A DNA stretch of 64,000 nucleotides from an uncultured Bacteroidaceae bacterium (GTDB lineage: Bacteria > Bacteroidota > Bacteroidia > Bacteroidales > GCA-2748055). Below are positions 21,289 through 54,936 of this stretch, in pieces; positions within the stretch are counted from its first letter, which is position 1, and every line of letters begins with the position of its first letter. The stretch lies in NCBI GenBank assembly GCA_964528675.1, contig CAZGTU010000006.1, forward strand, positions 29,424 to 93,423, in the 5' to 3' direction. A program made the translations under genes and the position numbers. The notes under the pieces are model-generated. The model was not told the DNA's origin. It saw only the letters and a list, made by a program, of their open reading frames with translations, and did not search any database.

Positions 21289-23163
21289 TCAATCAAAAAA
21301 ATTAATATACCAGTTATTCTCATCGAGGAGGTGGTTATAGATCTGATCGCGCATGTGTTCGGGGTATTTGGAAGCAACACGCTCTGCAAGGAAGGAAGGC
21401 TCATTTCTCCGCTTGGCTATCCGCATCAGATCGTAAAATCTTTCTCCTTCATAAGCCAGTTCCCGGGCTCTTTCCCTAAGAATCTCTTCTTCCAGAATTC
21501 TCTGTTTTTCTTCCAGGTTTCCTTCCAGATTAAGGTAATCAATAATTTCATTTGTGAAAGGATCATGGATATACATGATATTGGCAATTTTTATTCCATC
21601 ATTTTCACTTCCTAATCCGACCCGGCCTCTAACTCCCATCTGCTCACGCGTAACGGAAATATCATAATGACTGCCATCGTTTACAATCTTAAGAGCATTA
21701 TTTGTAGCAGTCCGGATAAGACCATTTCTATCAGCTACCCAATAGACGTATAATTCTGCCATATACAAATGAATACCGCCGGCCCTGTAAACAATGTAGT
21801 TTGCATCCTGATCAAAACGGCCTTTGTTTATTGAATATTTGTACACAACTGTGTCCACATTCTCCATTATGACATTTGCACTACGGGTGTCTTCACGAGC
21901 TTTTAAAGAAAGCATTTCCATGTATTCTCCCGTGGACAGGGCGGCTCCACCTTTCAGATACATATAGGAACTTCCGAATCCCCTGTAAAAATCACTCGGA
22001 AAACCAGCACGTGCCATTTCATGTTTAGCAGGATTGTCGTGGCTGTCATCAATGAGCTGTCCTCTCCATACTGTTTCCCAGGTAAAAATAGCAGGTTTGG
22101 AGGGTTTTAACATATAATGATGAGGTGACCAGTTCTCGAACATCGACTGAAACTCATTTTGCTGGAAGTTTGATTTATTGAACCAGATAGTATAAATATG
22201 TTCTCTATTGTCAATATTATCAAAAATATTTCGCCACTCCATATAAGCAAAACTATTATCCAGTTGATATCGGTTGTTCTCGGTAGAGTTATAAATGATC
22301 TTGCTGAAATGATTTTCTGCTTTTAACAAGTCACCCTGGGTCAAATACATATGTCCCAGAAGAGCATGCATAGCATAAGTATTCCAGATGGTAACCTCCC
22401 AGGAAATATCATTATTCTCTATATAATGATTAACACCAACAGCCTTAATCTTATTCTCAAGCTGATTGGTAAAAACATCAATTACCAGATCGAGGTCATA
22501 ATAATTCTTTTCAAGTTCAATGGGCTTATTATAAGTGGTATCGTTATAATAGCCATCTGTAGAATATTCTATATAAATACTATCCACATAAGTGCCGGAA
22601 GAAGAAATATACTGCTGAATCTCATCCATGGTAGTCAGCGATTCATGGATAAAAGGTATTTTTCCATATATTCTTACAGCATTGAAATAAGCCCATGCAC
22701 GCATACAGAGAGCCTCACCGTATAACCTGTCATAATTCGTTACAGGTTCATCAGGATCTAAAACCTCGGGATGCTCTCTTTCAAGTATTTTAATAAAATT
22801 ATTTGTGGCAGAGATCAACTTGAAGAATTTCGTGGGGGAAGCATATTTATTTGTCCTGCTTATATTCCAGTTATATATTTCTACCAGGTCAGCATCTGCA
22901 TTTTCGGTGATGGTGAGCAGATCTCCCCTTAATTCTCCCAGTACCATTAATTGTTCAACAAGATCCTGCTGAAGTCCATACATTCCCATTTCTACGGAAC
23001 GGTATTCGTACCAGTCATCATACAGTTGTTCTTCATTAATATCCAGTTCCTGTTCCGGATCAAGGAAATCTTCACATGAAGACATAAAAACCAGCGGAGC
23101 AAAGATAAAACCCGCGGTGATTACATATTTAAATAACTTTCTCATATTTGACATCATATTCAA
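21289..23163 (-). CDS. SusD/RagB-family lipoprotein (pair 2); true start may be 23154 or 23145
   Basis: Lipobox 'FMSSC'; 'LGELRGDL', 'GEALCMRAWAYFNAVRIYGKIPF', 'ILRERARELAYEGERFYDLMR'. Confidence 0.92.
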   Translation of the reverse strand: MNMMSNMRKLFKYVITAGFIFAPLVFMSSCEDFLDPEQELDINEEQLYDDWYEYRSVEMGMYGLQQDLVEQLMVLGELRGDLLTITENADADLVEIYNWNISRTNKYASPTKFFKLISATNNFIKILEREHPEVLDPDEPVTNYDRLYGEALCMRAWAYFNAVRIYGKIPFIHESLTTMDEIQQYISSSGTYVDSIYIEYSTDGYYNDTTYNKPIELEKNYYDLDLVIDVFTNQLENKIKAVGVNHYIENNDISWEVTIWNTYAMHALLGHMYLTQGDLLKAENHFSKIIYNSTENNRYQLDNSFAYMEWRNIFDNIDNREHIYTIWFNKSNFQQNEFQSMFENWSPHHYMLKPSKPAIFTWETVWRGQLIDDSHDNPAKHEMARAGFPSDFYRGFGSSYMYLKGGAALSTGEYMEMLSLKAREDTRSANVIMENVDTVVYKYSINKGRFDQDANYIVYRAGGIHLYMAELYVYWVADRNGLIRTATNNALKIVNDGSHYDISVTREQMGVRGRVGLGSENDGIKIANIMYIHDPFTNEIIDYLNLEGNLEEKQRILEEEILRERARELAYEGERFYDLMRIAKRRNEPSFLAERVASKYPEHMRDQIYNHLLDENNWYINFFD

Positions 23164-23165
23164 TT

Positions 23166-26100
23166 TTAAAATCCAACCTTAATACCTGCAATAAACTGTC
23201 GGCTCTGTGGCAGTTGTCCGTAATCCACGCCAAGATGTACATGTGAATAGGAATAAGCAAATTCAGGATCGTAACCCAGATACCGGGACAAGGTCAGTAA
23301 ATTATTGGCTGAAATATAAAACTCAGCATTTCTAAAGGTTAAAAATTCATTTGGAATGGTGTAACTTAAAGTGACATTCTTTAATCTGGCATAAGAACCA
23401 TCTTCCACCCACCGACTGGAAAAGTCGGCATTTCCCATCGGATCATTCATCAATGCCCGGGGCACAGCGGTTTCCTGACCGTTATATTGCCATCTTTTCA
23501 ATACATCCACACTTTGATTTTCAAGTCCGGTCATAGACTCATTTTGATAACGTACGTAATTAAATATTTCATTTCCTTTGGAGAAATAGACAAATGCACT
23601 GAGGGCCCATCGTTTGAAAGAGAATTTGGTGAAGAGTCCTCCAAAAAGCTCAGGAATTGAAGATCCAAGTATAGTTTTATCATAATTATTAATAACACCA
23701 TCAGGTTCTCCCTCAGGTCCTGAAATGTCTTCATATATAGCATCACCTCCACTGTAAGCCATATTTCTTTCATTCACCAGGCCTGCCTCTGCAGCTTCTT
23801 CATGAGTTGAGTAAACTCCTTTATAAACGTAGCCATAGAAACTATTCAGAGGAGCACCAACTTTGTTTATTAATTGGGCACCCTGAATATTATTAAAAAG
23901 TTGACCTCCTTTTACTTCCAGAACTTCATTTTGTACAGAAGAAATATTTGCCCGAATATCCCAGTCAAATGAATTGCCATCAATTACCCTGAGAAATGAG
24001 GACAATTCCCAGCCGTTATTCACCATTTTACCGCCATTCTCCATCCTGAAGTCATATCCAAGATAAGAATCAAGAGGTGTGAATATCAACATATTATCTG
24101 TAGTGGATTCAAAATAATTGAAAGAAGAATAAAAACGATTACCAAAGAATGAAAGATCAAATCCGAGATTCATCTTGGTAACCTCCTCATAACTCAACTG
24201 ATCATTGGTTATCACTGCCGGATAGAGACCCACTGTTTCTCTGAATTTCACCGCTTCATAATAATTGGTGGCACTGGATTCACCTATGTCATCATTCCCG
24301 GTTTTCCCATAAGAGAAACGGAATTTCAATTCTTCGAGCCAGGAATAATTCTTGAGGAAGAATTCATTGGATACACGCCATGCAGCTCCTGCCGAATAAA
24401 ACAATCCGAAAGGTTCTCCCAGAACATCCATGGTATTAATAGCATTCTCTCCGACTCTCGATGATCCATCGAGAGAAACTGTGGCATTCAACAGATATTT
24501 ATCCCTGAAAGAATAAGTGAGATATTCATAAAAAGATACCCAGTTCCAGTTGCGGTTTTCTCCACCTATCTCTCTCTGATCGTTTTGGCCATCCTGAATG
24601 GTACGGTATTCATCATTTTGATGGGCATTTTTCGTAAGTCCCCAGTCATATTCATACTGATTGATTTCGAGATGCATTCCCGTATTTGAAGAAAATACAT
24701 GATCGTTCCCTATATTCTTCCGGAAGAGTAAATAGGTGTTGTTATAAATGGAATTCAAATCATTATTGGCAGATTTTGAAACATTAATAGCCTCATCATC
24801 ATAATACATTTCCATCCCTTTATTGGGCATAAATAGATTTTCCTTCAGTATATTATAAGTCAGACTGAAATTTGAAAAGCCGGTCAGATTTTCATTTATT
24901 GCTCCTTCCAGCCCAAGGTTTGCAATAAAATTTGTATTGCTGTTTGAAGCTTCATAATTATCTATTATAGCCAGGGGATTACTTACCTGCATTTCATAAA
25001 CATTTGAAAGAATGGTTAATTCCCGTTCTTCCACATCATATTGATAAGGGTTCAGAAGTGGCGATTTTGCCAGGCTTGCCATTATCGGACTGGTTTCCGG
25101 AACGGTAGCGGCTTCCTTCAATTTTGCCAGATTATAATTCAGGGATACACCGGCATTCATTTTCAACCAGGTAAAAATATTCAACCGGCTCACAAACCTG
25201 AGGTTGTAACTCTGATAATTGGTTTCCTTTATGATCCCGTCACCATTATAATAACCAAAAGAAAGACCGTAACGAGCTATCTCATCGCCTCCTTTCAAAT
25301 TCAAATTAAGATTTGTAAAGGAAGCATCCCTGAAAACGATATCCTGCCAATTTGTATCATGTTGAAAATCGATATAATTATCATCATCCTTCGTAAGAAA
25401 CAGATTAGGATATCTTTCTTTAATTTCCTCCTCAAGCATTCCGGATGAAAAAAGCACTTCACTCATTAATGTTTTATGCTGCTGCCCATTAAGCTGTGGT
25501 ATGTATCTTTCAGGGGCAAGGGAATAGCCTGATCTTAAATCAAGTTCGATTGTGGTCTGGGTTACACTGGGATCGAGCGTTTCAATGAAAACAATACCAT
25601 TCGATCCCCTTGATCCATAACTTGCTGCAATTGTAGCATCCTTTACCACAGTGGCCTTGGAAATATCATGTGGATTTATTCCAACCAGGGGATTATAGGA
25701 ATAGCCATGAATATTGGATCCGAAAATCTCATGCGGAGTTATGGGTATGCCATCCACGATGTACAGGGGTTGATTTGAAGTATTGACAGAGTTTATTCCC
25801 CTGATATTTGTTACTGCGCCACTTGAAGGTAAGCCTGATCGCTTTATTACATTCATGCCGGTAACACGACCCTGAAAATATTCATCAAGAGTAACAGCCG
25901 GAGTATGATGCATGTTATCCACATCAACTTCCGAATACGTTGCAACTATATTTCTTTTTCTTACCGGTTGGGTCATCAGAAGAACCTGATCTTCTCCTGA
26001 AGTTACATCATCTGAGGTCAGATAGATCTTGAGCTCCTTCCTTCCACTGAGGAATATTCTCTTCTGTTTGTAATTACCGGTTGGATCGATTATTAACCAT

Positions 26101-26357
26101 TCATTGCGACCGGGCACTACCAACTCAAATCTCCCTTCTTCATCCGTTACAACAGGCATTAAAGATGAGCCTTCCACACTTACAGAAACATTTGAAAGGG
26201 GTTTATTGCTCTGGGACACAATAACCCCGCTTACCTGCAGCGAATCCTGAGAATAAGCCGAAAAGAAACATAACAGCATAATGGCCAGCAAGTTTACTCT
26301 TCGCGTTAAATCCTTGATTTTAAATAGTGTATGCATTTTATTATGGCTTTCCTTCAA
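23166..26357 (-). CDS. SusC/RagA TonB-dependent transporter (pair 2)
   Basis: N-terminal carboxypeptidase-regulatory-like extension; plug 'FQGRVTGMNV', 'IRGINS...QPLYIVDGIP', 'KDA..AASYGSRGSNGIV'; barrel; ends 'GIKVGF'. Confidence 0.95.
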   Translation of the reverse strand: MKESHNKMHTLFKIKDLTRRVNLLAIMLLCFFSAYSQDSLQVSGVIVSQSNKPLSNVSVSVEGSSLMPVVTDEEGRFELVVPGRNEWLIIDPTGNYKQKRIFLSGRKELKIYLTSDDVTSGEDQVLLMTQPVRKRNIVATYSEVDVDNMHHTPAVTLDEYFQGRVTGMNVIKRSGLPSSGAVTNIRGINSVNTSNQPLYIVDGIPITPHEIFGSNIHGYSYNPLVGINPHDISKATVVKDATIAASYGSRGSNGIVFIETLDPSVTQTTIELDLRSGYSLAPERYIPQLNGQQHKTLMSEVLFSSGMLEEEIKERYPNLFLTKDDDNYIDFQHDTNWQDIVFRDASFTNLNLNLKGGDEIARYGLSFGYYNGDGIIKETNYQSYNLRFVSRLNIFTWLKMNAGVSLNYNLAKLKEAATVPETSPIMASLAKSPLLNPYQYDVEERELTILSNVYEMQVSNPLAIIDNYEASNSNTNFIANLGLEGAINENLTGFSNFSLTYNILKENLFMPNKGMEMYYDDEAINVSKSANNDLNSIYNNTYLLFRKNIGNDHVFSSNTGMHLEINQYEYDWGLTKNAHQNDEYRTIQDGQNDQREIGGENRNWNWVSFYEYLTYSFRDKYLLNATVSLDGSSRVGENAINTMDVLGEPFGLFYSAGAAWRVSNEFFLKNYSWLEELKFRFSYGKTGNDDIGESSATNYYEAVKFRETVGLYPAVITNDQLSYEEVTKMNLGFDLSFFGNRFYSSFNYFESTTDNMLIFTPLDSYLGYDFRMENGGKMVNNGWELSSFLRVIDGNSFDWDIRANISSVQNEVLEVKGGQLFNNIQGAQLINKVGAPLNSFYGYVYKGVYSTHEEAAEAGLVNERNMAYSGGDAIYEDISGPEGEPDGVINNYDKTILGSSIPELFGGLFTKFSFKRWALSAFVYFSKGNEIFNYVRYQNESMTGLENQSVDVLKRWQYNGQETAVPRALMNDPMGNADFSSRWVEDGSYARLKNVTLSYTIPNEFLTFRNAEFYISANNLLTLSRYLGYDPEFAYSYSHVHLGVDYGQLPQSRQFIAGIKVGF

Positions 26358-26387: not shown

Positions 26388-27926
26388 TTATTCATCATAA
26401 GGGATAAATTCAATATAGTCTATTACGAGTCCATTGGATAAAACATTTGCCGGGCCCTTGTATTCAAACCTGATCTCAGCATCTCCATAACCGGCTTTGT
26501 TGTCAAGCCAGCAATCCCATTTATTAAAGCCTCCCTCTGGACGGTATCGAACACCTGTGACACTCCAGAAATACTCCCTGTTTTTTACATAATCGTAATA
26601 GTCGATGGTGGCTATAAGCTCATCATTTGCATAAATTTCGTACAATCCGCCAACATACATATGCGTTCTCACAACCATCAGATATCTCCTGGGGAAAATG
26701 TTTTCAACCTTGATTGTGGCTGAAAAATCACCATCATATCCTTTTTGAAAATCAACCTTTAAAATAGAATCGTTGGAGGCCGTATTTACATATTCCCTCT
26801 GTGGTTGGGTGGCAATATCGCTGTTAATGGTAACAAGTTCTGGCAACCATGAAAACTTATTTATTCCGGTTTGTTCCATCAACCATTCCCCTTCCATCCT
26901 CACAGAACCTGTAAAAAGCGTGTCCGGGATAGAAAAATCCTGGTAGTTATAGGCATATCCATTGCTGCAAAGTGTTTTTTCAGTGGGTACATAGTCAATA
27001 ATGATACTGTCGCCCAGAACATTTTTCAACTTCACGGTATCGGTTGGCAGGGTCTTCATAAATTCCTGTGGTTCAAGCATATTTAAAAAAACTCCATTTT
27101 CCAGCAAGTAAGGAATTAAAACATCTTCCTGCCATTCATAGGGAATATCATTATAGTCCTGGTAGATATCGCCCAGAGAAAGAGCCATTTCAGTCAGAGC
27201 GTTGTTATAATCTTCTTCTTTGGGAAATACTATGGTTGCAGTTTTGTTCCTGAATTCTTCCTTTATGGGGAAAAAGAATTGCTCGAATTCATTGTATATG
27301 ATTGCAACCGTATCATATATGGTTCTTCCTTCTTCATCAAATCCAATTGGGCGACTTTCTTCCCTGTCCAGAATTATGGAATCCTGGTCATCATAATACC
27401 TCTTGAAAACAGGGTTGGTATAAGAATAATACTCATAGAGATTTGGCTTGGGTCGGGGAATCTCTCCCATTACAAAAAACTTTCCGTTTTTATATAAGGG
27501 ACTTTCAAATTCCAGGGGAATCTGGTCATAATGACTTGCACTTCCGGAACGTTCGAAAAGCGCATACTTTTCTGCAAGCGTCTGCACTTTTCTTTTTCCC
27601 CGGATATTTCCGGATTGTATATAATGATTTGATATAAGGTAGTTCAAAAATGAGCCTCCTATTGTATCCGATCCGGTAAATGAATCGAAAGCATCATTGT
27701 CAGGAATAAATAAGGTATAAGGATCGTCTTTCAGAAAAAGAGTATCATATTGATTTTCCTTAACATACTGAGTGAAAGTACTCAGATTCTCATCCTCCTG
27801 GATAGCTTCCCATACATTCTTGTTGACTGTTGGTGGAGTATTTCCGTAATGTTCCTGCCAGTCCTCTTCACATCCCGCCAGCATTATGATCAATGCGATT
27901 AATAATATCCCTTTTATTGTATCCAT
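26388..27926 (-). CDS. Fasciclin (FAS1)-domain surface lipoprotein with C-terminal beta-sandwich
   Basis: Lipobox 'MLAGC'; FAS1 motif 'YTLFIPDNDAF...YLISNH'; second FAS1-like 'TIVFPKEEDY'; C-terminal CBM-like sandwich ending 'LVIDYIEFIP'. Confidence 0.8.
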   Translation of the reverse strand: MDTIKGILLIALIIMLAGCEEDWQEHYGNTPPTVNKNVWEAIQEDENLSTFTQYVKENQYDTLFLKDDPYTLFIPDNDAFDSFTGSDTIGGSFLNYLISNHYIQSGNIRGKRKVQTLAEKYALFERSGSASHYDQIPLEFESPLYKNGKFFVMGEIPRPKPNLYEYYSYTNPVFKRYYDDQDSIILDREESRPIGFDEEGRTIYDTVAIIYNEFEQFFFPIKEEFRNKTATIVFPKEEDYNNALTEMALSLGDIYQDYNDIPYEWQEDVLIPYLLENGVFLNMLEPQEFMKTLPTDTVKLKNVLGDSIIIDYVPTEKTLCSNGYAYNYQDFSIPDTLFTGSVRMEGEWLMEQTGINKFSWLPELVTINSDIATQPQREYVNTASNDSILKVDFQKGYDGDFSATIKVENIFPRRYLMVVRTHMYVGGLYEIYANDELIATIDYYDYVKNREYFWSVTGVRYRPEGGFNKWDCWLDNKAGYGDAEIRFEYKGPANVLSNGLVIDYIEFIPYDE

Positions 27927-27932
27927 TCCTGA

Positions 27933-29501
27933 TTAATTTTTAAATGGTTCAAATCTTATATAATCCCATAGAAATCGGCCGGGTATCAGAGACTTTACCT
28001 GTATCCTGTGTTCTTCATATCTTGAAAAATCTATGGTTCCCAGTTCAATTCTTGCAAAAGGATTATCAGTACTTCCACCCGAGGACAGATCGATGAGTCC
28101 CCCCATATTTTTACCGTCGATATAAACTTCAACTACAGCATTCCCTTCATTAAAAGCTTCAGCTCCAAGGAATACATTATACTTTCCCTGGATGATCTTC
28201 GGGATATCGTAGTTAATAATAAAATCTCCATCTAATTGAAGATAATCATTACTCCATGCGGGGTGATCATCATCTGCTTCCATTACAAAGAAAAGATCTG
28301 TTCCGGAATAACTTATTACAGATAATGCCGAGGAGTCTTCAATAATGTAAGTACCTGGTTCCTGCCGGTACTCATGAAATGTAGGCTCATTGTAGAACTG
28401 ATAGGTTTGAACTGCCCTCGAAGGTTTCTGACGTCTCATTACCTGGTCTATGAAATGTATGGCACCACTCTGGGTCAATATATTGCTTTCATCATAATAA
28501 AATCCTATATAGTCAATGATGGTGGTATCTTCTTCCACCACAAGGGTATCAAATATTTGTTTGCCTTTATTAATCTTAATGTCAAGATCGGTTCCATTAA
28601 CATTAAGCGGAATCTCGGCATAAGTGCTGAAATTTGAGTTAACACCAACAAAATCATCAAGGAAATGATTCTCCTGCAGGATATGGTATCCCACATAATT
28701 ATAAAGAGGATTGGAAGGATTCGTGTAATCTGCGTCATCAGGACTTACCAGGGCGATCAAATCCTCCAGATCGTAAATTTCATTTCTGTTGTACACGGAA
28801 TCGGGTTCCACAAACATGGTAAAAGTACCCTCAATATTTTCTGATTCTTTCTGGTTGAAATCGACAGAATCGGATAAGCCGGTGGCTTCCAGTGCAGATA
28901 GGAATATAGAAAATTCTGTATGCTGCTTAAGCCAGTCATAACTTGTAAAAGTGACCGGACTTAATGCTTCACTGATTTCGTGAACGATTCCGTTGGATAA
29001 TTCTACATTTGGGAATACCACCGGAGCCTGGTTATTGATCTTATAATAAGAAGTATCCGGTTCAATAACAAAACTTACCGTCAGAAAATCCTGGGAAAGT
29101 GTATATTCAGGCAGTGCTCCGAAAGGAAAATCGTTGGAAAGTATGGCCAGGTTAATTACATGGTAGCGGCTGAAGGCCTGAACATAAGCTTTATTGCTTA
29201 GCATATCTTCAAGAGAATTAAACTGATCATTGACCTGAATGAACCTTTCGATTGCCAGATTATCGGGAAGAAAGAGAGTATAACCAATACCATCAGGGTT
29301 GTAGGCGCTCATAGTTTTGTGAATGCCTCCTTCTTCAAGGATCCTTTTAAAACTTGAAAATCTTTCTTCATTCTCCAGGATATAATCCCAGATAGTCATT
29401 TGTTCCATATCCTCGAAACCGGGGTCCACGGTAGGTTCCTCGCAGGATTGTATTCCTGCAAATAAAAGGATGGTAATTATTATGTTGAATATTCTTCTCA
29501 T
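27933..29501 (-). CDS. Tandem fasciclin-domain surface lipoprotein with C-terminal beta-sandwich
   Basis: Lipobox 'IQSC'; 'YTLFLPDNLAI...RYHVI...NGIVHEI'; 'FTMFVEPDSV...GYHIL...GAIHFID'; ends 'FLWDYIRFEP'. Confidence 0.85.
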   Translation of the reverse strand: MRRIFNIIITILLFAGIQSCEEPTVDPGFEDMEQMTIWDYILENEERFSSFKRILEEGGIHKTMSAYNPDGIGYTLFLPDNLAIERFIQVNDQFNSLEDMLSNKAYVQAFSRYHVINLAILSNDFPFGALPEYTLSQDFLTVSFVIEPDTSYYKINNQAPVVFPNVELSNGIVHEISEALSPVTFTSYDWLKQHTEFSIFLSALEATGLSDSVDFNQKESENIEGTFTMFVEPDSVYNRNEIYDLEDLIALVSPDDADYTNPSNPLYNYVGYHILQENHFLDDFVGVNSNFSTYAEIPLNVNGTDLDIKINKGKQIFDTLVVEEDTTIIDYIGFYYDESNILTQSGAIHFIDQVMRRQKPSRAVQTYQFYNEPTFHEYRQEPGTYIIEDSSALSVISYSGTDLFFVMEADDDHPAWSNDYLQLDGDFIINYDIPKIIQGKYNVFLGAEAFNEGNAVVEVYIDGKNMGGLIDLSSGGSTDNPFARIELGTIDFSRYEEHRIQVKSLIPGRFLWDYIRFEPFKN

Positions 29502-41116: not shown

Positions 41117-41192
41117 AGTTATGCAGTTATGCAGTTATGCAGTTATGCGGTTATGCAGTTATGCGGTTATGCGGTTATGCGGTTATGCGGTT
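41117..41192. repeat. Octamer tandem repeat (A/G)GTTATGC x9.5 in the HTCS / T9SS-arm divergent promoter region
   Basis: agttatgc x4, ggttatgc, agttatgc, ggttatgc x3, ggtt. Confidence 0.95.
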
Positions 41193-45325: not shown

Positions 45326-45347
45326 TCACAGATTATCCTATATAAAG

Positions 45348-45377
45348 AAAGAGCCTGGTATTCAGGCTCTTTTTTTA
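45348..45377 (+). terminator. Intrinsic terminator after the large T9SS protein
   Basis: aaagagcctg-gtatt-caggctcttt followed by a T-run. Confidence 0.8.
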
Positions 45378-45462
45378 TTTATTTTCAATATATTATGTCA
45401 GTCAGTTGATACGGTTGAGAGACCTGTTGAATAAAGGAAAGTTCCATTACAATTTAATATAT

Positions 45463-47433
45463 ATGAAGAAGCTAACTCTACTAACTGCACTAACATTTAT
45501 TTCCTTACTTGCATTTCCCCAGATCACAGCCTGGGAAGCTGCAGAGCAAATGCACAAAGGCATTAATCTGGGAAATACACTGGAACCACCCCTGGAGGGA
45601 GGCTGGAACAATCCACCTGCAGAGGAATATTATTTTGACCTCTACAAGAATGCAGGATTCCAATGTGTAAGAGTTCCCGTAAGATGGGATAAACACACTC
45701 AAACAAGCTCGCCTTATGCTGTAAATGAAGAATGGCTTCAGCGCGTGGAGGAAGTACTTGACTGGGGGCTGGAAAGAGATTTATTTGTTGTGGTCAATGC
45801 TCATCATGATAACTGGATTAAGGATAATTATGAAGATCCTGCCATGAGGGCCCGGTTTGACAGTATCTGGGCACAGATCTCACGACGCTTTAAAGATAAA
45901 CCCGAAAAACTAATCTTCGAGATCCTCAACGAACCTCACGGACTCACAAAAGCCCAGAATGATGATATGCATGCCCGGGTACTTTCCATTATAAGGAAAA
46001 CCAATCCGACACGACTTGTTATATTCCAGGGACATAACTGGGGAGGCTCAGATGAACTGATCGAAGCCGCAATACCCCGGGATGATTACCTTATTGGATC
46101 TTTTCACTCATACGATCCCTATCTTTTCGGACTTGAAGGAGAGGGAAGCTGGGGATCTCCCTCAGATGTAAGCACACTGAAAAGCAAATTTCAAAAAGTA
46201 AAAGACTGGTCCGACACACATAATATCCCGGTATTTCTGGGAGAATTCGGGGCTATTAATAAATGTGAATATAATTCACGCATGAAGCATTACAAGTTTT
46301 ATGTTCAGTTCGCCAGGGAATATGGTTTTGTGTATTGTGCATGGGATGACGGCGGAGATTTTCGCATTATGCAGCGGCAATCAAGGGGATGGAACGAAAT
46401 TAAAAACATACTTTTGCATACCAGCAAGAATTCACCTGCCGGACCAAAACTGGAACTTCACCAGGACACTATTATGAGATTGAGCTGGGAGAATAAATTA
46501 GCAGAAGCAGACAGCATTTGCATTGAGCGGCGCAATGATTTCAGTAACTTCTGGAAGATTGCCACTCTTGAGCCCGATGCTACAGCGTATTTTGATGAAG
46601 GACTTTTCCCCAATTCATATTACTATTACCGTGTAGTTGCCTATTATAACGGAGGAGAAAAATTATACTCACATCCTGTAAAAAAACTTATGCCCGTTTA
46701 TGTTCCGAAAGTGAGAGAAGCTTTCAAAGGATATCCTTTCCCTATTCCGGGTATCATTGAGGCTGAAGATTTTGATAAAGGAGGAGAAGGTCTCTCCTAT
46801 CACGATGGGACCCCGGGCAACATTGCCGGAGCTTACCGGCCCAATGAAGGAGTGGATATTTATGAAACCGGCAATGAAGAATACCAGGTTGGCAGCATAA
46901 TGCCCGGAGAATGGTATGAATATTCCGTAAATGTCCGGAATAAAGGCATTTATGGCCTGGATGTTTATATATCGGCAATTCAGGAAGGAGGAAGCTTTAA
47001 AGTATCAGTGGGAGATTCAGAAACAAATACCCTGCAGGCTCCAAATACCGGAAGCTGGCTTGTTACAACTCCCGTGAGCACAAACATTGAACTTTCTGCC
47101 GGTGAACAGATAATGCGTTTCACTATAATTGATGATCCATTATTTAACATTGATAAGTTTGAATTTAGCCTCGACAATACATCTGCAGAACAATACCCTG
47201 AACATTTCTCATTCCAGGCTTATGTGAACAATTATGAGGAAATCATTATCAAGTTTGAGGAAGGCACTGATATTTCAATATTGCATTTATATGATGTAAG
47301 GGGAAATCGGGTAAAAAGCATTACAGCTCCTTCTTCAAACCCGAAAATCCAGACTTCTGATCTGGAAAATGGAATTTATATAATTCAAGCCTTGTCTGAT
47401 AAAATGAATATAACAAAGAAGATAATACTGTAA
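45463..47433 (+). CDS. GH5 endo-beta-glucanase/mannanase (GH5_25-like) + FN3 + CBM6-like + T9SS CTD
   Basis: Likely start ATG 45463 (MKKLTLL); 'GINLGNTLEPP.EGGW', 'VRVPVRW', acid/base 'EILNEP', nucleophile 'FLGEFG', 'WDDGG'; 'IEAEDFDKGGEG.SYHD'; CTD 'LYDVRG...GIYII...KKIIL'. Confidence 0.88.
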   Translation: MKKLTLLTALTFISLLAFPQITAWEAAEQMHKGINLGNTLEPPLEGGWNNPPAEEYYFDLYKNAGFQCVRVPVRWDKHTQTSSPYAVNEEWLQRVEEVLDWGLERDLFVVVNAHHDNWIKDNYEDPAMRARFDSIWAQISRRFKDKPEKLIFEILNEPHGLTKAQNDDMHARVLSIIRKTNPTRLVIFQGHNWGGSDELIEAAIPRDDYLIGSFHSYDPYLFGLEGEGSWGSPSDVSTLKSKFQKVKDWSDTHNIPVFLGEFGAINKCEYNSRMKHYKFYVQFAREYGFVYCAWDDGGDFRIMQRQSRGWNEIKNILLHTSKNSPAGPKLELHQDTIMRLSWENKLAEADSICIERRNDFSNFWKIATLEPDATAYFDEGLFPNSYYYYRVVAYYNGGEKLYSHPVKKLMPVYVPKVREAFKGYPFPIPGIIEAEDFDKGGEGLSYHDGTPGNIAGAYRPNEGVDIYETGNEEYQVGSIMPGEWYEYSVNVRNKGIYGLDVYISAIQEGGSFKVSVGDSETNTLQAPNTGSWLVTTPVSTNIELSAGEQIMRFTIIDDPLFNIDKFEFSLDNTSAEQYPEHFSFQAYVNNYEEIIIKFEEGTDISILHLYDVRGNRVKSITAPSSNPKIQTSDLENGIYIIQALSDKMNITKKIIL

Positions 47434-47444: not shown

Positions 47445-47762
47445 ATGAAAACTATCAAACTAATCCTGATAATAATTACCCTTACACCTTTACTTGTTGG
47501 CGCACAGATTGTTAAAAAACATGGAGATCTATCTGTTAACGAAATTTACCTGGTTGACAAGTCAGGAGAACCCTTAATGTTAAAAGGTGTAAGTTATGGC
47601 TGGCATAACTGGTGGCCCCGTTTCTACAATAAAAGCACGGTAAAATGGCTGGCAGAAGACTGGAATGCAATGGTTGTCAGAGCGGCAATGGGAATAGAAC
47701 CGGAAAAAGGATATCTTGAGCCCGGCGAGAGATCATTGAGGCTCGGGAAGAAGGAAAAATGA
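47445..47762 (+). pseudogene. Truncated GH5_2-type cellulase (signal peptide + ~70 aa of catalytic domain only)
   Basis: 'HGDLSV...LVDKSGEPLMLKGVSYGWHNWWPRFYN...DWNAMVVRAAMGIE..GYL' is a GH5_2 N-terminus. Similarity stops at ~aa 92, both catalytic Glu are missing, and the next gene starts 23 nt after the stop. Confidence 0.8.
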
Positions 47763-47785: not shown

Positions 47786-50700
47786 ATGCGAAAACTACTG
47801 CTAATTAAACTAACACTACTCTCGCTTTTTACAACATTTGCACAGGATCCGGAATACGGCTATCTGGCTGCAGAGGCAGAAGCAGAGGACGGAACTCTTT
47901 CGGGAGTGGTTGTTGGAAGCTCCGATCCAGGATATTCAGGAAGCGGCTATGTGACCGGTTTTGACAGTGATAATGATAAGGTAACAGTTGATATGGATGT
48001 ACCGGAAACAGGATTTTACAGGCTTGTAATAGATTATAATGCCCCCAATGGCGAAAAAACCCAGTTCCTTTCAGTTAATGCCGGACCTTCTTCATCACTG
48101 GTCTTTCCGGCTACAACTGCCTTTGCCCGGGTTGATGCCGGTAAATATCACCTTCAAAAAGGACAAAACAGCTTTTCAATTATAAAATCCTGGGGCTGGT
48201 CAAATATAGACAAGTTTTCACTTTATTATGCAGAAGCGAATGAATATAACATCTCCCCTGCCCCTGTCGATTCTGCTGCCAATGAAGAAAGCATTGCTCT
48301 TTATGATTTCCTGAAGCTTCAATTTGGGAAAAGAATAATTTCAGGGCAAACTCACAATTACTACGATGAAATTGTCAGTTTAACAGGAAAATCTCCAATG
48401 TTGAGAACAGGTGACTTCCAGGTTTATACGGAGGGTTACCCCTACCTGTGGAAAGACGGGGGACATACCTTTGGAAAAACCGATGATGGCACTGTGGATG
48501 AACTCATCAACTGGTATAATTCCACCAATGGAAAAGGAATAGTATCATTCCAGTGGCACTGGCACTCCCCTACTGGCGGTGAAGCCGGAACCAATACTTT
48601 TTATACCGATTACACTACATTCGACATCACCCGTGCAGTCACCCCCGGAACTCCTGAATATGATGATATCATCAGGGATATTGATGACATATCAACTGAA
48701 TTGAAGAAATTTCGTGATGCAGGAATTCCTGTTCTCTGGCGGCCGCTTCATGAAGCAGGGGGAGGATGGTTCTGGTGGGGAGCCAGAGGAGCAGAACCCT
48801 GCCTGGAGCTCTATGATATTATATATGACCGGATGAAAAATCATCACCAGCTTCATAATCTTATCTGGGTATGGTCAACCCCTGAAGAAGAATGGTATCC
48901 GGGAAATGATAAGGTGGATATTATAGGATATGATTCCTATCCCGGAGATTTCAACTATGGCATACAAAAAACCATGTTCGATGCCCTTTACCGGTTGACT
49001 TCAGGAGAAAAGCTCATTGCGATGACAGAAAACGGACCGATTCCCGATCCGGATGCCTGCCTGGAAGAAGATGCCCCATGGTTATTGTTTATGGCCTGGA
49101 GTGACCTTGTGAGCAGTCAGAATTCTGAACAGCATATAAAAGATGTGTACAATAATACGAATGTGCTTACACTTGAATCGGATAATGCGATTACCGGACC
49201 TGAATGGAGAAGTGCGCTTTATCCCGAAGACTGGAAACCGGGATACCAGGATGAATATGGTCGGTATCTGCATGATTTTTCATACGCAGGCTATCATAAA
49301 AGTGAAAAAGAGATACCCTTTATCACCGAAAATATTGTGGATGTAACCCAACCCCCTTACAATGCAGACAATACCGGCAATGATGATGTCACAAGTATAA
49401 TTCAACAGGCACTTGATGATGTGAGCTCCTCCGGAGGGGGTGTAGTTTTCCTTCCTGCCGGCACTTACAGAATTAAGCCCGCTGCTTCAGGTGACTATGC
49501 CCTCAGAATCCGATATGACGGGACTATCCTAAGAGGTGCCGGACCAGGTGAAACCTACATCTGGAATGATGAGACTTATATGAGACAAAAAGATATCATC
49601 AGGGTGAATGGAGACTGGTCTGGTTGGTTCGAAAATTACGGTACTACCACAAAAGTAGCTAAAGATGTACTGCTCCCAACCCGCATTATTCCGGTTGAAT
49701 CGGTAAGTGGCTTCAAAAAAGGTGATAAAATTATGATCACCAATCCTGCTACCGATGCCTTTATAGCCGAACATGACATGACGGGCCACTGGAAACAGTC
49801 TGCTATCAAAGGTGTTGCATTTAAGAGAGTGATAGATTCGATAGATGTACAGAACAATCTGCTATTTATTGATGCTCCGACTCGCTATTTTCTTAAAACC
49901 CGCGATAATGCAAAAGTGAGTCATGCAGGAAAGCACATCAGAGAATGCGGTATTGAAGACCTGTCCATTGGAAATACGGAAAATCCGAAAAGCGGCTGGG
50001 ATGAAGAGTCTTACTCAACCTCAGGGACAGGAGCATATGATGTACATTTTTCTCAGGCTATCAGTATGAATTATGTTGAAGATTCATGGATCAAAAATGT
50101 AAATACCTACAAGCCAGACGTGAATACTCTGGATTTCCACATTCTCTCAAACTGTCTTATCCTTCGTTCCTGCAGACAGGTGACTGTGGATTCTTGTTTT
50201 TTCCAGAAACCCCAATATGAAGGAGGAGGCGGAAACGGTTACATGTATACCCTCGAGTCGAACGATTGCCTTATCAAAAACAGCAGGGCAAATCACAGCC
50301 GGCATAATTATGATTTCAAGTTTCCCTTCAGCAATGGCAATGTTATCCATAACTGCCTGGGGGAGAACTCAAAATATTCCAGCGATTTTCACATGTTTCT
50401 GAGTATGTCCAACCTTTTTGATGTATTCACTGTGAATGGTGATTATCTTGAATCCATGTTCAGGCCATGGGGAGGAAGCTGGTCCATTCACGGATATTCA
50501 TCAACGGAATCGGTTTTTTACAATACCTACGGTGAAGCTTATCATCCCAACCGTGATTACATTGTTGAATCGCGGCAATATAAATGGGGCTATATCATAG
50601 GTACTTCAGGACCTGCCGACAGGGTGAAGACAGAACCTGTTTCCGGCACCAGCAATGGTTTTTCTTATGACACCTCTCCTGAAGATATGGTTGAAGGTGT

Positions 50701-51745
50701 GGGAATGGGGCAGGATCTGAGACCGGTTTCCCTGTACCTTGATCAATTTGAAAGACGTACAAAAACATATCCCGGTATAGGTACATTTGATGTTAGCATT
50801 GAAGTGAGAGATGAAATATCTAATGAAACAATCAGTGATGCTGATGTCAGTATTTACAATGAAACCCTATCTACCAACAGTTCCGGTAAAGCGGTATTCA
50901 ACAATGTATTGAATTCATTTTATCTCAGCATCGACGGAGGAAATTTCAGGGATCTTACCGAAAGGCAGATAGTTATTTACAGCGATACAAGCCTTGTGTT
51001 TTACCTGGAAAGAAATAATTATGATGTAAGTTTTCGATTATATGATGAAAAGGATCTTGAGCCGTTCTGGGGAGTGAATGTAAGGCTGGGAGGTTCTACG
51101 AAAGTTACTGATAACAATGGTGTTGTAAACTTCAATGTACCGGAAGGTGAACACGAATATTCGATTGACAAGCTATCGTACCACCGGGAAACCGGAACAT
51201 TGGATGTTCATTCAGATACGGTAATGGATTTTTTCCTGGTCCGTACACATGCAAATATAAAATTCAGGCTCAGGGAAGGCACTACTCCCGTAAATGATGC
51301 AATCGTAAAGATGAAAGATGACTCACTTGTAAGCACTTCCCTTGGATTGGCTGAATTCAGGCAAAAACCTGTGGGAGAAAATTATTCTTACAGTATAACC
51401 AAAGAAAATTATCATAACAGAGATGGCAGTCTTTACCTCACTACAGATACTACCATAAATGTTGAAATGCTTAAAAAACCCTCCGGAATTAATGAAATTC
51501 ATCCTGATGATAATTTCCAGTTCTGGCCAAATCCGGCAGAAGATGTGTTATTCTGTCGATTCAAGGATTATTCCAAAGATATAATCCTGAAGATTACCGA
51601 TCTTAAAGGGAAAGAAATCATTGTTATTGAAAATCATGGTGCTCATGAACTGATCATTAATACCGCTAAGCTGGATACGGGATTGTATTTACTTGAATAT
51701 AATTCTTTGAAAATGAATAAATCATTTCTTCTGCTGGTCAGATGA
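47786..51745 (+). CDS. Multimodular CBM35-GH26 beta-mannanase + unassigned right-handed beta-helix + 3 beta-sandwich spacers + T9SS CTD
   Basis: CBM35 'AEAEDGTLSGV...GYSGSGYV'; GH26 'WHWHSP', acid/base 'LWRPLHEAGGGWFWWG', nucleophile 'AMTENG'; beta-helix 'HDFSYAGY...IIQQALD...GGGVVFLPAGTYRI'; CTD 'FWPNPA...ITDLKG...GLYLLEY'. Confidence 0.88.
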   Translation: MRKLLLIKLTLLSLFTTFAQDPEYGYLAAEAEAEDGTLSGVVVGSSDPGYSGSGYVTGFDSDNDKVTVDMDVPETGFYRLVIDYNAPNGEKTQFLSVNAGPSSSLVFPATTAFARVDAGKYHLQKGQNSFSIIKSWGWSNIDKFSLYYAEANEYNISPAPVDSAANEESIALYDFLKLQFGKRIISGQTHNYYDEIVSLTGKSPMLRTGDFQVYTEGYPYLWKDGGHTFGKTDDGTVDELINWYNSTNGKGIVSFQWHWHSPTGGEAGTNTFYTDYTTFDITRAVTPGTPEYDDIIRDIDDISTELKKFRDAGIPVLWRPLHEAGGGWFWWGARGAEPCLELYDIIYDRMKNHHQLHNLIWVWSTPEEEWYPGNDKVDIIGYDSYPGDFNYGIQKTMFDALYRLTSGEKLIAMTENGPIPDPDACLEEDAPWLLFMAWSDLVSSQNSEQHIKDVYNNTNVLTLESDNAITGPEWRSALYPEDWKPGYQDEYGRYLHDFSYAGYHKSEKEIPFITENIVDVTQPPYNADNTGNDDVTSIIQQALDDVSSSGGGVVFLPAGTYRIKPAASGDYALRIRYDGTILRGAGPGETYIWNDETYMRQKDIIRVNGDWSGWFENYGTTTKVAKDVLLPTRIIPVESVSGFKKGDKIMITNPATDAFIAEHDMTGHWKQSAIKGVAFKRVIDSIDVQNNLLFIDAPTRYFLKTRDNAKVSHAGKHIRECGIEDLSIGNTENPKSGWDEESYSTSGTGAYDVHFSQAISMNYVEDSWIKNVNTYKPDVNTLDFHILSNCLILRSCRQVTVDSCFFQKPQYEGGGGNGYMYTLESNDCLIKNSRANHSRHNYDFKFPFSNGNVIHNCLGENSKYSSDFHMFLSMSNLFDVFTVNGDYLESMFRPWGGSWSIHGYSSTESVFYNTYGEAYHPNRDYIVESRQYKWGYIIGTSGPADRVKTEPVSGTSNGFSYDTSPEDMVEGVGMGQDLRPVSLYLDQFERRTKTYPGIGTFDVSIEVRDEISNETISDADVSIYNETLSTNSSGKAVFNNVLNSFYLSIDGGNFRDLTERQIVIYSDTSLVFYLERNNYDVSFRLYDEKDLEPFWGVNVRLGGSTKVTDNNGVVNFNVPEGEHEYSIDKLSYHRETGTLDVHSDTVMDFFLVRTHANIKFRLREGTTPVNDAIVKMKDDSLVSTSLGLAEFRQKPVGENYSYSITKENYHNRDGSLYLTTDTTINVEMLKKPSGINEIHPDDNFQFWPNPAEDVLFCRFKDYSKDIILKITDLKGKEIIVIENHGAHELIINTAKLDTGLYLLEYNSLKMNKSFLLLVR

Positions 51746-52057: not shown

Positions 52058-52083
52058 CTATATAACTCAAACCTGCATTCACT

Positions 52084-54936
52084 ATGTCTATCAAAAAAAT
52101 CGCATGCATTATTTTACTGTCAATTCTGACGCATTCTCTTTTCTCCCAGACCAAATTCATTATAATTGATCAGTTCGGGTATTTGCCACAAGCTGAGAAG
52201 ATTGCCGTAATAAAAAATCCTATTAAAGGATTTGATGCCGGAAGAAGCTTTCAGCCGGGAAATATTTACTCGGTGGTGAATGCCGCCAGTGGAGAAAAAA
52301 TTTTCACCGGATCTCCCGTTGCCTGGAAGAGCGGCATGACTCATTCAGGTTCCGGCGACCGGGTATGGCATTTCGATTTTTCCGGGGTGAGTGAACCCGG
52401 AACATATTATATTCTCGATGAACAGCGGGGACAGCGGTCTTACGATTTTATCATTGCCGAAAATATATATAATGAAGTCTTAAAACATGCCATGCGCACC
52501 TTCTTTTATCAAAGAGCAGGTTTTCCTAAAAAAGCCCAATATGCCGGCGAGGAATGGGCAGATGAAGCAAGTCATATCGGGCCTTTACAGGATAAAAACT
52601 GCCGGAGTTTCTTTGATAAGGACAATCCCGACACTGAAAGAGATGTAAGCGGTGGCTGGTATGATGCAGGTGATTATAACAAATACACCAATTGGACAGC
52701 AAATTATATAGTTGAATTCATGAAAGCTTATCTTGAAAGACCGGAGGCCTGGGGAGATGATTACAACATACCGGAATCGGGGAATGGGATCCCTGATATT
52801 CTGGATGAGGCTAAATGGGGGATTGACCATCTTTTAAGAATGCAGCAGCAGGATGGAAGTGTTCTCAGTATAGTAGGAGAAGCCGGAGGAAGCCCTCCCT
52901 CCTCCGCTACCGGAGCATCATATTATGGACCTCCAAATACCTCAGCAACCTTAAATACTGCTGCAAGTCTGGCCATAGCATCAAAGGTATACAGAAGCAT
53001 CGATATGAATTCTTATGCCGACAGCCTTCTCACCGCAGCCCGGGATGCCTGGGACTGGGCAGAATTGTATCCTGATTCCCTCTTCAACAATAACGATCCT
53101 GCATACAATTCACAGGGTCTGGGTGCAGGAAGGCAGGAGGTTGATGATTATGGTCGTCTGATGGTAAAACTGGAAGCAGCATGTTACCTGTTTGAAGTCA
53201 CCGGCGATGTCATGTACCGTGATTTTTTCGATGCAAACTACAAACAAAGTCATATGTTTCAATGGGGCCATGCCTATCCCTATGAACACCGAAACCAGGA
53301 CGCCCTGCTTTATTATACCAGCCTGGAAAATGGCTCCGCAAATGTAAAACAGGATATCCTTGATGTATACAGAAATGCTATGCTTTCTTCCGATATCAAT
53401 TTCCCTGCCCATGAGAACAAAATGGATCCCTATTTCGCGTTTCTGGAGAGCTATACATGGGGTAGCAATGGGATAAAATCCGCCCAGGGAAGCATGTTCT
53501 ACAATCTAATATCCTATTATGAAAATTCATCCGACAGTGCAAAAGCCAGCACTGCAGCAATGAAATACATAAACTACATACATGGGGTCAATCCCCTGAA
53601 TTTTGTATACCTGTCAAACATGTATGATTACGGAGCAGACAGCTCCGTGAATGAATTTTATCATTCATGGTTTACAAATGGAAGTGAGAAATGGGATCGC
53701 GTGGGTGAGTCTTTATACGGACCTCCTCCGGGTTATCTTACCGGGGGACCAAATCCCTCCTACAACCGGGATGGTTGCTGCCCGGATAATTGTGGTGCCG
53801 GGAACAACAGTAAATGTACATCAGAATCATTAAGTCCTCCCAAAGGTCAACCCGAACAGAAATCTTATAAAGACTGGAATACAAGCTGGCCTCAAAACTC
53901 ATGGGAAGTCACCGAGAACAGTTGTGGCTACCAGACAAACTACATACGATTATTATCAAAATTTGTAAATATTGATAAAGACTGCAATGGAGATCCGGGA
54001 GGAACTGCATTTATCGATTCATGCGGCGTATGTGCGGGCGGAAATACAGGGATAACTCCTTCACTTTCAAAAGATGAATGTGATTTTCCGGTTGATTGCA
54101 GGGGAATTGAAAATGGCGCTGCTTTCATAGATTCCTGTGGCAATTGTGCCGGAGAATATACTGGAATTACACCAGTTTTGGATACCAGCCTTTGCATAGA
54201 GCCTGTTGAGGAATACGATGTAACAATCAGACTATTGGACAGCTATAATAATGATCCATTCTGGGGAGTTCCTGTGGAGCTGGGAGAATATTCGGAAGTA
54301 AGTGATGGAGAGGGAGAAGTTGTTTTTATTCTCGCAGAAGGGGAATACAATTACCAGATCAACAAGATTTCATATAAACCGGAGAGCGGAACAATAAATA
54401 TTGTTTCAGATACAGTTATAGATTTTTTCCTGGTCAAAACCCATGCGAATATAAAATTCCGGCTGAAAAACGGCACTACACCTGTAAACAATGCATGGGT
54501 TAAGCTGAGGAATGATTCTCTGGCTACAAATTCACTGGGTATAGCAAATTTCAATGAAATACCGGTCGGAGAAAATTATAGTTACTCTGTCAGGAAAGAA
54601 GGTTTTTACCTGATTGAAGGAACAATTTCTCCTTTAAGCGACACCACGCTGAATATTGATATGGAGAAAAAACCGGTCAATATACCTAATCAATTTAAGG
54701 AAAGTAATTTCAGTTTTTATCCGAATCCTGCAGATAATCATATTCGTTGCACATTGGAAAATATGAAATCCGATATCTCAATCCGGATCACAGACCTGAA
54801 TGGAAGGGATTACATCAACATACATCCGGCGGAAGAGGAGTTTATCCTTAACACATCGGATCTCAATACCGGACTTTATATTCTGCAATATTTAGCAGGA
54901 AATAAAAAGGAAAATTTCCTCCTCATTATCAGATAA
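52084..54936 (+). CDS. GH9 endoglucanase (N-terminal Ig-like) + 2 Cys-rich repeats + 2 beta-sandwich spacers + T9SS CTD
   Basis: 'IDQFGYLP..EKIAV' Ig domain; 'GGWYDAGDYNKY', 'PDILDEAKW', 'YIHGVNP', 'SWEVTENSCGYQ'; CTD 'FYPNPA...ITDLNG...GLYILQY'. Confidence 0.9.
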   Translation: MSIKKIACIILLSILTHSLFSQTKFIIIDQFGYLPQAEKIAVIKNPIKGFDAGRSFQPGNIYSVVNAASGEKIFTGSPVAWKSGMTHSGSGDRVWHFDFSGVSEPGTYYILDEQRGQRSYDFIIAENIYNEVLKHAMRTFFYQRAGFPKKAQYAGEEWADEASHIGPLQDKNCRSFFDKDNPDTERDVSGGWYDAGDYNKYTNWTANYIVEFMKAYLERPEAWGDDYNIPESGNGIPDILDEAKWGIDHLLRMQQQDGSVLSIVGEAGGSPPSSATGASYYGPPNTSATLNTAASLAIASKVYRSIDMNSYADSLLTAARDAWDWAELYPDSLFNNNDPAYNSQGLGAGRQEVDDYGRLMVKLEAACYLFEVTGDVMYRDFFDANYKQSHMFQWGHAYPYEHRNQDALLYYTSLENGSANVKQDILDVYRNAMLSSDINFPAHENKMDPYFAFLESYTWGSNGIKSAQGSMFYNLISYYENSSDSAKASTAAMKYINYIHGVNPLNFVYLSNMYDYGADSSVNEFYHSWFTNGSEKWDRVGESLYGPPPGYLTGGPNPSYNRDGCCPDNCGAGNNSKCTSESLSPPKGQPEQKSYKDWNTSWPQNSWEVTENSCGYQTNYIRLLSKFVNIDKDCNGDPGGTAFIDSCGVCAGGNTGITPSLSKDECDFPVDCRGIENGAAFIDSCGNCAGEYTGITPVLDTSLCIEPVEEYDVTIRLLDSYNNDPFWGVPVELGEYSEVSDGEGEVVFILAEGEYNYQINKISYKPESGTINIVSDTVIDFFLVKTHANIKFRLKNGTTPVNNAWVKLRNDSLATNSLGIANFNEIPVGENYSYSVRKEGFYLIEGTISPLSDTTLNIDMEKKPVNIPNQFKESNFSFYPNPADNHIRCTLENMKSDISIRITDLNGRDYINIHPAEEEFILNTSDLNTGLYILQYLAGNKKENFLLIIR

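Follow-up and report, generated by a model that had tools for sequence, protein, structure and literature searches.

A locus at positions 21289-54936 of a 64,000-nucleotide window (the whole stretch of DNA analysed, contig CAZGTU010000006.1) was studied in the genome of an uncultured sediment bacterium related to Prolixibacteraceae. The source is a 5.6-Mb metagenome-assembled genome, 94% complete, and the window sequence occurs in sediment DNA metagenomes only, no RNA runs containing it. The locus comprises a minus-strand operon of seven genes for glycan import, a hybrid two-component system (HTCS) regulator and a divergent plus-strand arm of glycoside hydrolase (GH) genes whose products carry type IX secretion system (T9SS) signals. 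A sequence-only reading had described an enzyme-free import operon, an HTCS and a divergent arm, with GH3, GH2, GH94 and GH130 missing. This gene map was confirmed by the open reading frame (ORF) listing and the Pfam/NCBIfam scans. Every gene was found at its coordinates, no catalytic domain was detected by Pfam/NCBIfam in any of the seven operon proteins, and GH3, GH2, GH94, GH130 and GH1 were absent within 21289-54936. The features of a polysaccharide utilization locus (PUL) were present as two adjacent susC/susD pairs, GH5, GH26 and GH9 genes inside 14 kb, and the HTCS between the arms.

The operon is read in the order FAS1-SusC-SusD-FAS1-FAS1-SusC-SusD, with gaps of 2-52 bp and all genes on the minus strand. 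Its first gene, Fas1 (34279-36600), encodes a 773-aa surface lipoprotein with PF02469 and a lipobox cysteine at position 20 followed by NEELDEE. The next two genes encode the TonB-dependent transporter SusC1 (30993-34226; TIGR04056 at 700 bits, with Plug and CarbopepD_reg_2 domains) and the 489-aa lipoprotein SusD1 (29505-30974; PF07980 and PF14322, with a lipobox). Fas2 (27933-29501; 522 aa, PF02469 at 76 bits in two stretches, lipobox C-EEPTVD) stands in the SusE/F position, that of a surface glycan-binding protein (SGBP), and Fas3 (26388-27926; 512 aa, PF02469, lipobox C-EEDWQE) also occupies an SGBP position. The operon ends with the second TonB-dependent transporter SusC2 (23166-26357; TIGR04056 at 615 bits, the cut-off of the model being 368 bits) and the 624-aa lipoprotein SusD2 (21289-23163; PF07980 and PF14322, with a lipobox). 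A lipobox cysteine with acidic residues right after it, the pattern of surface-exposed Bacteroidota lipoproteins, was found in Fas1-3 and in both SusD proteins. The AlphaFold2 (AF2) model of Fas1 (pLDDT 84) revealed a chain of four tandem FAS1 domains, and its Foldseek matches were TGFBIp and periostin, which likewise have four FAS1 domains (E 1e-22 across about 760 columns). No PDB sequence match was obtained for the C-terminal approximately 300 aa of Fas2 or for the C-terminal half of Fas3. The three proteins are thus read as FAS1-domain surface lipoproteins filling the SGBP slots, with a putative role in glycan binding.

The plus-strand arm begins after a divergent spacer of 571 bp from the HTCS. 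It encodes a 1264-aa non-catalytic protein, LTD_1264 (41531-45325), with a weak LTD match and a PF18962/TIGR04183 T9SS C-terminal domain (CTD), and then a GH5 enzyme with an fn3-like region, a family 6 carbohydrate-binding module (CBM) and a CTD (45406-47433, likely start ATG at 45466), annotated as an endoglucanase/mannanase. These are followed by a 105-aa GH5 fragment having a signal peptide and no CTD (47445-47762), a 1319-aa CBM35-GH26-beta-helix-CarboxypepD_reg-CTD protein (47786-51745) and a 950-aa CelD_N-GH9-CTD endoglucanase (52084-54936). The domain assignments of the three large enzymes are from Pfam. The sequence-only reading had stated that every intact protein of this arm ends in a T9SS CTD, and the scans bore this out, since PF18962 was above its cut-off in 4/4 intact proteins. 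TIGR04183 was passed by three of the four, the GH26 protein scoring 22.4 bits vs the 23-bit cut-off. The N-termini of the four proteins are type-I signal peptides, not lipoboxes. The T9SS core gene gldM was detected in the genome (TIGR03517 at 424 bits, contig C40). The SprA model TIGR04189 gave zero matches anywhere, controls included, and was therefore uninformative on the T9SS, so GldM was used instead. Since each protein has a signal peptide and a type-A CTD and gldM is in the genome, the four plus-strand proteins qualify on sequence grounds as predicted T9SS cargo, and T9SS export is proposed for the enzymes and LTD_1264. A cellulosome-like arrangement was ruled out, as no dockerin or cohesin Pfam match was found in any locus protein.

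The catalytic motifs of the enzymes were found to be present, namely NEP and GEFG in GH5, DAGD in GH9 and RPLHE in GH26. The closest PDB entries for the main GH5 were 4u3a, 3rjy and 3amc (E 1e-87 to 1e-51), its nearest solved enzymes being the GH5 domain of Clostridium thermocellum endoglucanase H (CtCelH), F. nodosum Cel5A (FnCel5A) and T. maritima Cel5A (TmCel5A). We take these three to be broad beta-glucan/mannan/xylan enzymes rather than crystalline-cellulose specialists, and the three entries are presumably members of GH5_25 (bifunctional glucanase/mannanase). The GH26 protein matched the CBM35-GH26 mannanase 3zm8 (E 1e-86), and the GH9 protein matched the endoglucanase 3x17 and BoGH9A (6dht); a GH9 orthologue of 61% identity is present in a related locus, L063 (loci and genomes of the comparison set are given here by L and G numbers, contigs of the own genome by C numbers). 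The 105-aa ORF was 70% identical to residues 27-99 of a 325-aa GH5 in L046, and is predicted to be a relic of the N-terminal part of a small GH5 that relatives retain intact. The full-length enzyme of L046 is closest to the cellulases 5i2u and Cytophaga hutchinsonii 5ihs. The truncation was identical in three independent run assemblies. On these family relationships the substrate is most likely a beta-1,4-glucan or glucomannan. This agrees with the proposal of the sequence-only reading that a SusCD importer is coupled to an all-T9SS endo-enzyme arm for beta-1,4-glucan or mannan, the nearest solved enzymes being glucanases and mannanases.

Two further observations were made on the modules of these enzymes. 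The beta-helix part of the GH26 protein (window 49200-50760) has counterparts of 57% identity in relatives (L048:7309-9924 and L049:11170-13833), where it forms a T9SS protein of its own with 870-890 aa and without CBM35 or GH26. This region gave weak matches only, to pectate-lyase-like models, BT3328-family lyase models and the epimerase AlgE4. The conserved beta-helix module, GH26-fused or stand-alone, is a candidate uncharacterised activity for enzyme discovery. Over their final 241 residues (51020-51745 and 54214-54936), which consist of a CarboxypepD_reg-like domain and the CTD, the GH26 and GH9 proteins are 49% identical, and a second, more diverged copy of this module lies farther upstream in the GH26 protein. 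The shared C-terminus suggests module shuffling inside the locus.

The conservation of the import operon was analysed in a family set of 91 genomes and in a sample of 300 genomes from across the phylum. Fas1 and LTD_1264 each have hundreds of metagenome homologues at 50-70% identity, the named ones belonging to Prolixibacteraceae, Mariniphaga and Tangfeifania. The seven-gene order with position-by-position best matches was recovered from over 25 family loci, and SusC1 was the best-conserved protein of the cassette (70-74% identity in orthologous loci). At E <= 1e-40, Fas1 was found in 0/300 of the phylum genomes. A permissive search revealed distant full-length Fas1 homologues (24-28% identity) in 7/300. 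Six of these distant loci were fetched and all six showed the exact heptad, each position matching best its window counterpart at 22-39% identity. A restriction of the cassette to this lineage, suggested by the stricter search, was therefore dropped, the same heptad being present in other families. The genes beside the distant heptads include those for two rhamnogalacturonan lyases, one of polysaccharide lyase (PL) family PL11, accompanied by GH43, and one of family PL4 bearing a type-B T9SS signal. The latter, of 1282 aa and with a CHU_C (type-B) signal, follows the heptad in L073:468-4313 of a distant family (G047), and extends the coupling of cassette and T9SS cargo beyond the Prolixibacteraceae-like family. 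The seven-gene cassette thus appears from these comparisons to be an ancient block spread across Bacteroidia, not special to this locus.

Some cassette genes were found broken up in two relatives (G500 and G508), where SusD2 lies in two pieces (L056:13259-15260) and SusC1 in four fragments (L057:15886-18864); pseudogenes or assembly errors are possible. In the own genome, contig C188:2519-6201 carries one or two ORFs (299 and 1109 aa) with at least seven tandem canonical FAS1 domains of 115-135 bits each. This repeat-rich fasciclin protein is very different from, and unrelated to, the cassettes.

The non-catalytic protein LTD_1264 was characterized through its predicted fold. The AF2 model of residues 1-1200 (pLDDT 84) showed a string of beta-sandwich domains, and Foldseek returned multi-Ig, S-layer and cadherin-like matches only, with no catalytic fold. 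The PDB sequence search matched the protein through its CTD alone. A terminator-like hairpin with a 17-bp stem and a T-run (45342-45378, plus strand) lies 17 bp past the LTD_1264 stop codon, and suggests that the gene is for the most part transcribed separately from the enzyme genes that follow it. Among the 91 family genomes, both Fas1 and LTD were present in 48, Fas1 only in 3, LTD only in 2 and neither in 38 (Fisher p approximately 1e-19). An LTD gene was located within 40 kb on the same contig for 48/84 Fas1-type genes. The inspection of more than 20 orthologous loci revealed a constant set of LTD, GH5-CBM6-CTD and the heptad, the GH5-CBM6-CTD protein being the enzyme most constantly tied to the LTD gene and the cassette. 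The accessories vary and include the small signal-peptide GH5, GH26-beta-helix-CTD or the beta-helix alone, GH44-CTD, GH9 and a sulfatase-like gene. The distant heptads of other families have no LTD gene. From its distribution, LTD_1264 appears to be a cassette partner specific to this lineage.

The two arms occur in at least four layouts, which are divergent with the HTCS between them (the window, L042, G034 and G418), divergent without it (G019, G006, G471 and G522), convergent (G487, G491, G478 and others) and same-strand (the paralogue type on contig C1). As the linkage survives this rearrangement, a functional tie between the arms is argued. The co-occurrence and co-localisation across the family also bear on the sequence-only reading, which had named a lack of co-conservation as grounds for giving the system up; the arms proved to be co-conserved. 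The own genome holds three paralogous LTD+heptad sets, each with its own diverged LTD copy. The copy on C1 (106.7-121.1 kb) is followed by genes for a major facilitator superfamily (MFS) transporter, a sugar isomerase, an aldolase, a kinase, two GH27 enzymes and an 813-aa CTD protein of no assigned family. The copy on C2 (60-112 kb) belongs to an approximately 50-kb locus with GH16-CTD, GH2, beta-helix proteins, oxidoreductases and a sulfatase, in which two GH5-like CTD proteins carry about 340 aa of LTD_1264-like modules. Relatives showed other enzyme sets, either GH10-CTD combined with GH5-CBM4-CTD, or a group of five sulfatases, GH29 and a beta-helix-CTD protein. The cassette with LTD is accordingly read as a reusable platform predicted to be wired to different enzyme sets.

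The regulator HTCS (36784-40959, minus strand) is placed between the arms, 183 bp upstream of Fas1, and contains Reg_prop, Y_Y_Y, HisKA, HATPase, Response_reg and AraC helix-turn-helix domains. Orthologues adjoining the cassette (47-50% identity) were found in G034, G418 and Mariniphaga anaerophila, and an HTCS lies in the equivalent place in L042. HTCS orthologues beside the same seven-gene order were present in G034 (50%), G022 (37%) and G004 (40%), of which G034 and G022 retain the homologue of the 1264-aa protein. The HTCS matches from the contig scan were rejected as orthologues, being paralogues of 22-36% identity without synteny, apart from one 34-residue fragment at 47%. The divergent control region between HTCS and LTD_1264 harbours a tandem array of an 8-bp unit, AGTTATGC x 10.5 (41109-41192, 93% matches). 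The k-mer depth of this array is about 200 times that of the flanking sequence, and the per-run contigs break off within it. Twelve such 8-bp arrays are present in the genome, several of them at contig ends, and the orthologous loci have none. The array could be a variable-length contingency-type repeat or a mere dispersed microsatellite. A misassembly at this point was judged unlikely because HTCS and LTD also adjoin each other in three further genomes (L042, L028 and L066).

Taken together, the locus is probably a PUL built of two modules and directed at beta-1,4-glucan and beta-mannan from plants or algae, the likeliest substrates being glucomannan, amorphous cellulose or mixed beta-glucans. 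The first would be the enzyme-free seven-gene cassette, with three FAS1 lipoproteins in SGBP slots and two different SusC/SusD transporters. The second would consist of T9SS cargo, namely the elongated LTD_1264 together with GH5-CBM6, CBM35-GH26-beta-helix and GH9 as three multimodular endo-enzymes. In the proposed working, the T9SS would send the enzymes and LTD_1264 to the cell surface or the medium, where the endo-enzymes would cut the polymer extracellularly. By analogy with known Sus systems, the fragments would be captured by the FAS1 lipoproteins and SusD1/2 and imported by SusC1/2, and the HTCS would presumably sense an imported oligosaccharide in the periplasm. The locus is without an exo-enzyme and its periplasmic-type GH5 is truncated, and the breakdown may be finished by unlinked GH3 and GH130 enzymes. 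Elsewhere in the genome, GH3 gave six full-length matches and one short, stop-interrupted fragment, and GH130 gave five matches.

Several observations weigh against this reading. The best-scoring GH130 gene adjoins a GH92 alpha-mannosidase and a GDSL esterase, and neither a cellobiose-epimerase nor a transporter operon was seen at this copy, which gives no dedicated downstream mannan pathway. The substrate is assigned from family membership, and one of the domains concerned, the beta-helix, has no assigned activity. The co-occurrence count given above was made without correction for phylogeny. The claim of the sequence-only reading that both arms stand under one HTCS did not hold up beyond the position of the gene, from which co-regulation is inferred; in the majority of orthologous loci the arms are not separated by an HTCS. 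The search for a shared operator motif upstream of Fas1, LTD, GH5 and GH9 gave only A/T-rich 9-11-mers in common, a sigma-70 scan being inapplicable to Bacteroidota promoters. In the cultured M. anaerophila, LTD-GH5-GH5 is on a different contig from the HTCS and heptad. This split, together with the usual lack of an HTCS between the arms, indicates that the arms can function unlinked.

The alternative that survives best, although it is considered unlikely, is a dedicated cellulose system of the C. hutchinsonii type to which a SusCD importer has been added. LTD_1264 would then be a cellulose adhesin, GH26 an accessory and insoluble cellulose the true substrate, which the T9SS GH5 and GH9 enzymes would degrade on the cell surface. 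The minimal set in relatives (L050, L051, L053, L055 and L058) is in accordance with this, being LTD, GH5-CBM6 and the cassette with no GH26, and relatives also have the small signal-peptide GH5 nearest to cellulases (5ihs of C. hutchinsonii included), GH44 and GH9. Cellulose use by C. hutchinsonii requires periplasmic endoglucanases and the T9SS, and SusCD is dispensable for it (PMC6247017); the first point favours a cellulose system and the second speaks against it. The truncation of the periplasmic-type GH5 in this genome, and the location of the enzymes next to two SusCD pairs in dozens of genomes, also do not agree with a PUL-independent system of the Cytophaga type. No processive GH48, GH6 or GH9-CBM3 is present. 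The nearest solved relatives of the main GH5 are, as we assume above, broad beta-glucan/mannan/xylan enzymes, and CBM6 and CBM35 are not generally regarded as crystalline-cellulose modules.

Less probable still, and doubtful on the family data, is the explanation that the arms are independent neighbours, the HTCS and heptad being a generic oligosaccharide importer with a regulon of its own and LTD with the T9SS enzymes a separately regulated set, placed side by side here through the organisation of the genome. This would account for the separation of LTD-GH5-GH5, which adjoins secA, from the cassette in M. anaerophila (and apparently also Tangfeifania), as well as for the strong terminator after the LTD gene, the distant cassettes of other families without any LTD gene and the failure to find a common promoter motif. 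The presence and absence of the two genes are nearly matched in the family (48 both, 38 neither and 5 discordant), however, and their neighbourhood in at least four layouts points to selection for linkage; all three paralogous cassettes of the genome also have their own diverged LTD copy. That this copy of the locus is decaying or non-functional is very improbable, because the GH5 remnant (47445-47762), the lack of exo-enzymes, the array in the promoter region that orthologues lack and the two same-genus genomes searched without a Fas1 or LTD match (E <= 1e-40; best HTCS match 35-37% identity) are outweighed by 12 remaining genes with intact long ORFs and conserved catalytic motifs, by several orthologous loci that also miss the small GH5 and by a sequence identical in three sample assemblies at 9-56x word depth.

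The preferred reading, a PUL of two linked modules, can be carried one step further, though only speculatively and with little confidence. LTD_1264 may combine with the seven proteins of the cassette into a single obligate surface machine, in which LTD_1264 is a long CTD-anchored stalk or scaffold that would hold the substrate or the T9SS-exported enzymes beside a double SusCD/FAS1 'utilisome'. In Prolixibacteraceae-like bacteria, duplication of this eight-gene platform might then have been followed by its adaptation to different glycans. If true, it would be a physical and evolutionary coupling of T9SS and Sus that is so far undescribed.

The locus was compared with described systems. The chitin utilization locus (ChiUL) of Flavobacterium johnsoniae combines the T9SS-secreted key enzyme ChiA with two SusCD pairs in one locus (PMC5127042). 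It resembles the window locus in its two SusC/SusD pairs, its sensor/regulator, a multimodular T9SS-exported endo-enzyme and a recalcitrant beta-1,4 polymer as substrate (PMC5127042). The two differ in that ChiUL has GH18/GH20 families acting on chitin, one secreted enzyme and its own downstream enzymes ChiB and GH20, whereas the window locus has GH5/GH26/GH9, four CTD proteins and no intact exo- or periplasmic enzyme. In the rhamnogalacturonan I (RG-I) PUL of Bacteroides thetaiotaomicron, the core is BT4164/65, the SGBP BT4167 and BT4168/69, with the order SusC-SusD-x-SGBP-SusC-SusD (PMC8002723). This published gene order agrees with the window cassette, B. thetaiotaomicron encodes FAS1-domain proteins, and the distant Bacteroidia heptads (22-39% identity) stand beside PL11 or PL4 rhamnogalacturonan lyases, so that homology is likely, as compared by gene order and not by protein alignment. 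The RG-I PUL targets pectin and has no LTD partner, in contrast to the beta-glucan/mannan locus described here. The enzymes of gut Bacteroides PULs are lipoproteins or periplasmic and not T9SS cargo. The accessory binding proteins of ChiUL are, to our knowledge, not FAS1 proteins, and we know of no LTD-type partner in that system. Canonical Sus-like PULs share with the window locus the SusC/SusD pairs, the surface lipoproteins encoded after susD in the downstream direction, the HTCS regulator and the co-localised carbohydrate-active enzymes. They have SusE/F-type SGBPs and lipoprotein endo-glycanases, whereas the window locus has FAS1 proteins in the SGBP slots, T9SS endo-enzymes, duplicated transporters and a fixed heptad.

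The cellulases of C. hutchinsonii and Candidatus Paraporphyromonas polyenzymogenes are similar to the window enzymes in combining GH5/GH9, CBMs and a type-A CTD (PMC6247017, PMC5831590). Ca. P. polyenzymogenes is reported to have no PULs and to rely on T9SS carbohydrate-active enzymes (PMC5831590). The background of the sequence-only reading, that both organisms use T9SS cellulases largely outside PULs, is in accordance with these papers (PMC6247017, PMC5831590). PULs are lacking or unneeded in these organisms, while the window enzymes are genetically tied to a SusCD importer. The further claim that merging the PUL and T9SS strategies would be unusual or undescribed was not upheld, as ChiUL is a precedent (PMC5127042) and the cassette is old, found across Bacteroidia and present in three copies here. 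In full-text searches, no literature was found that connects fasciclin proteins with SusCD loci or LTD proteins with T9SS glycan systems, or that is devoted to the FAS1 proteins or the LTD-type partner. A SusC/D pair of Alkalitalea saponilacus is described in a 2026 paper as induced by laminarin, with no mention of fasciclin. What appears to be new is the lineage-specific LTD-type T9SS partner of the cassette, the three paralogous LTD+heptad copies each with a different enzyme set, and the all-T9SS, exo-enzyme-free arrangement with a truncated periplasmic GH5.

The genes flanking the locus are housekeeping ones, including leuCDAB and genes for an aldo-keto reductase, DJ-1, a short-chain dehydrogenase/reductase, superoxide dismutase and pyruvate dehydrogenase. 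Elsewhere in the window and outside the locus, an 804-aa ORF (11489-13903) joins two domains, an MFS transporter and a spermidine-synthase-like one, in a single protein and adjoins a GH97 gene (9527-11485).

Sediment Bacteroidota recycle much plant and algal fibre, and the models of PULs come mostly from gut Bacteroides with lipoprotein surface enzymes. The locus type described here is a recurrent alternative, in which endo-enzymes that are all predicted T9SS cargo are combined with a fixed double-SusCD cassette with putative FAS1 binding proteins and, throughout this lineage, an accompanying large non-catalytic T9SS protein. The platform is reused for several substrates and is found in cultured strains such as M. 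anaerophila, where it is divided between two loci. The ligands of the FAS1 proteins and a possible physical coupling of T9SS cargo to SusCD import are therefore open to direct experiment.

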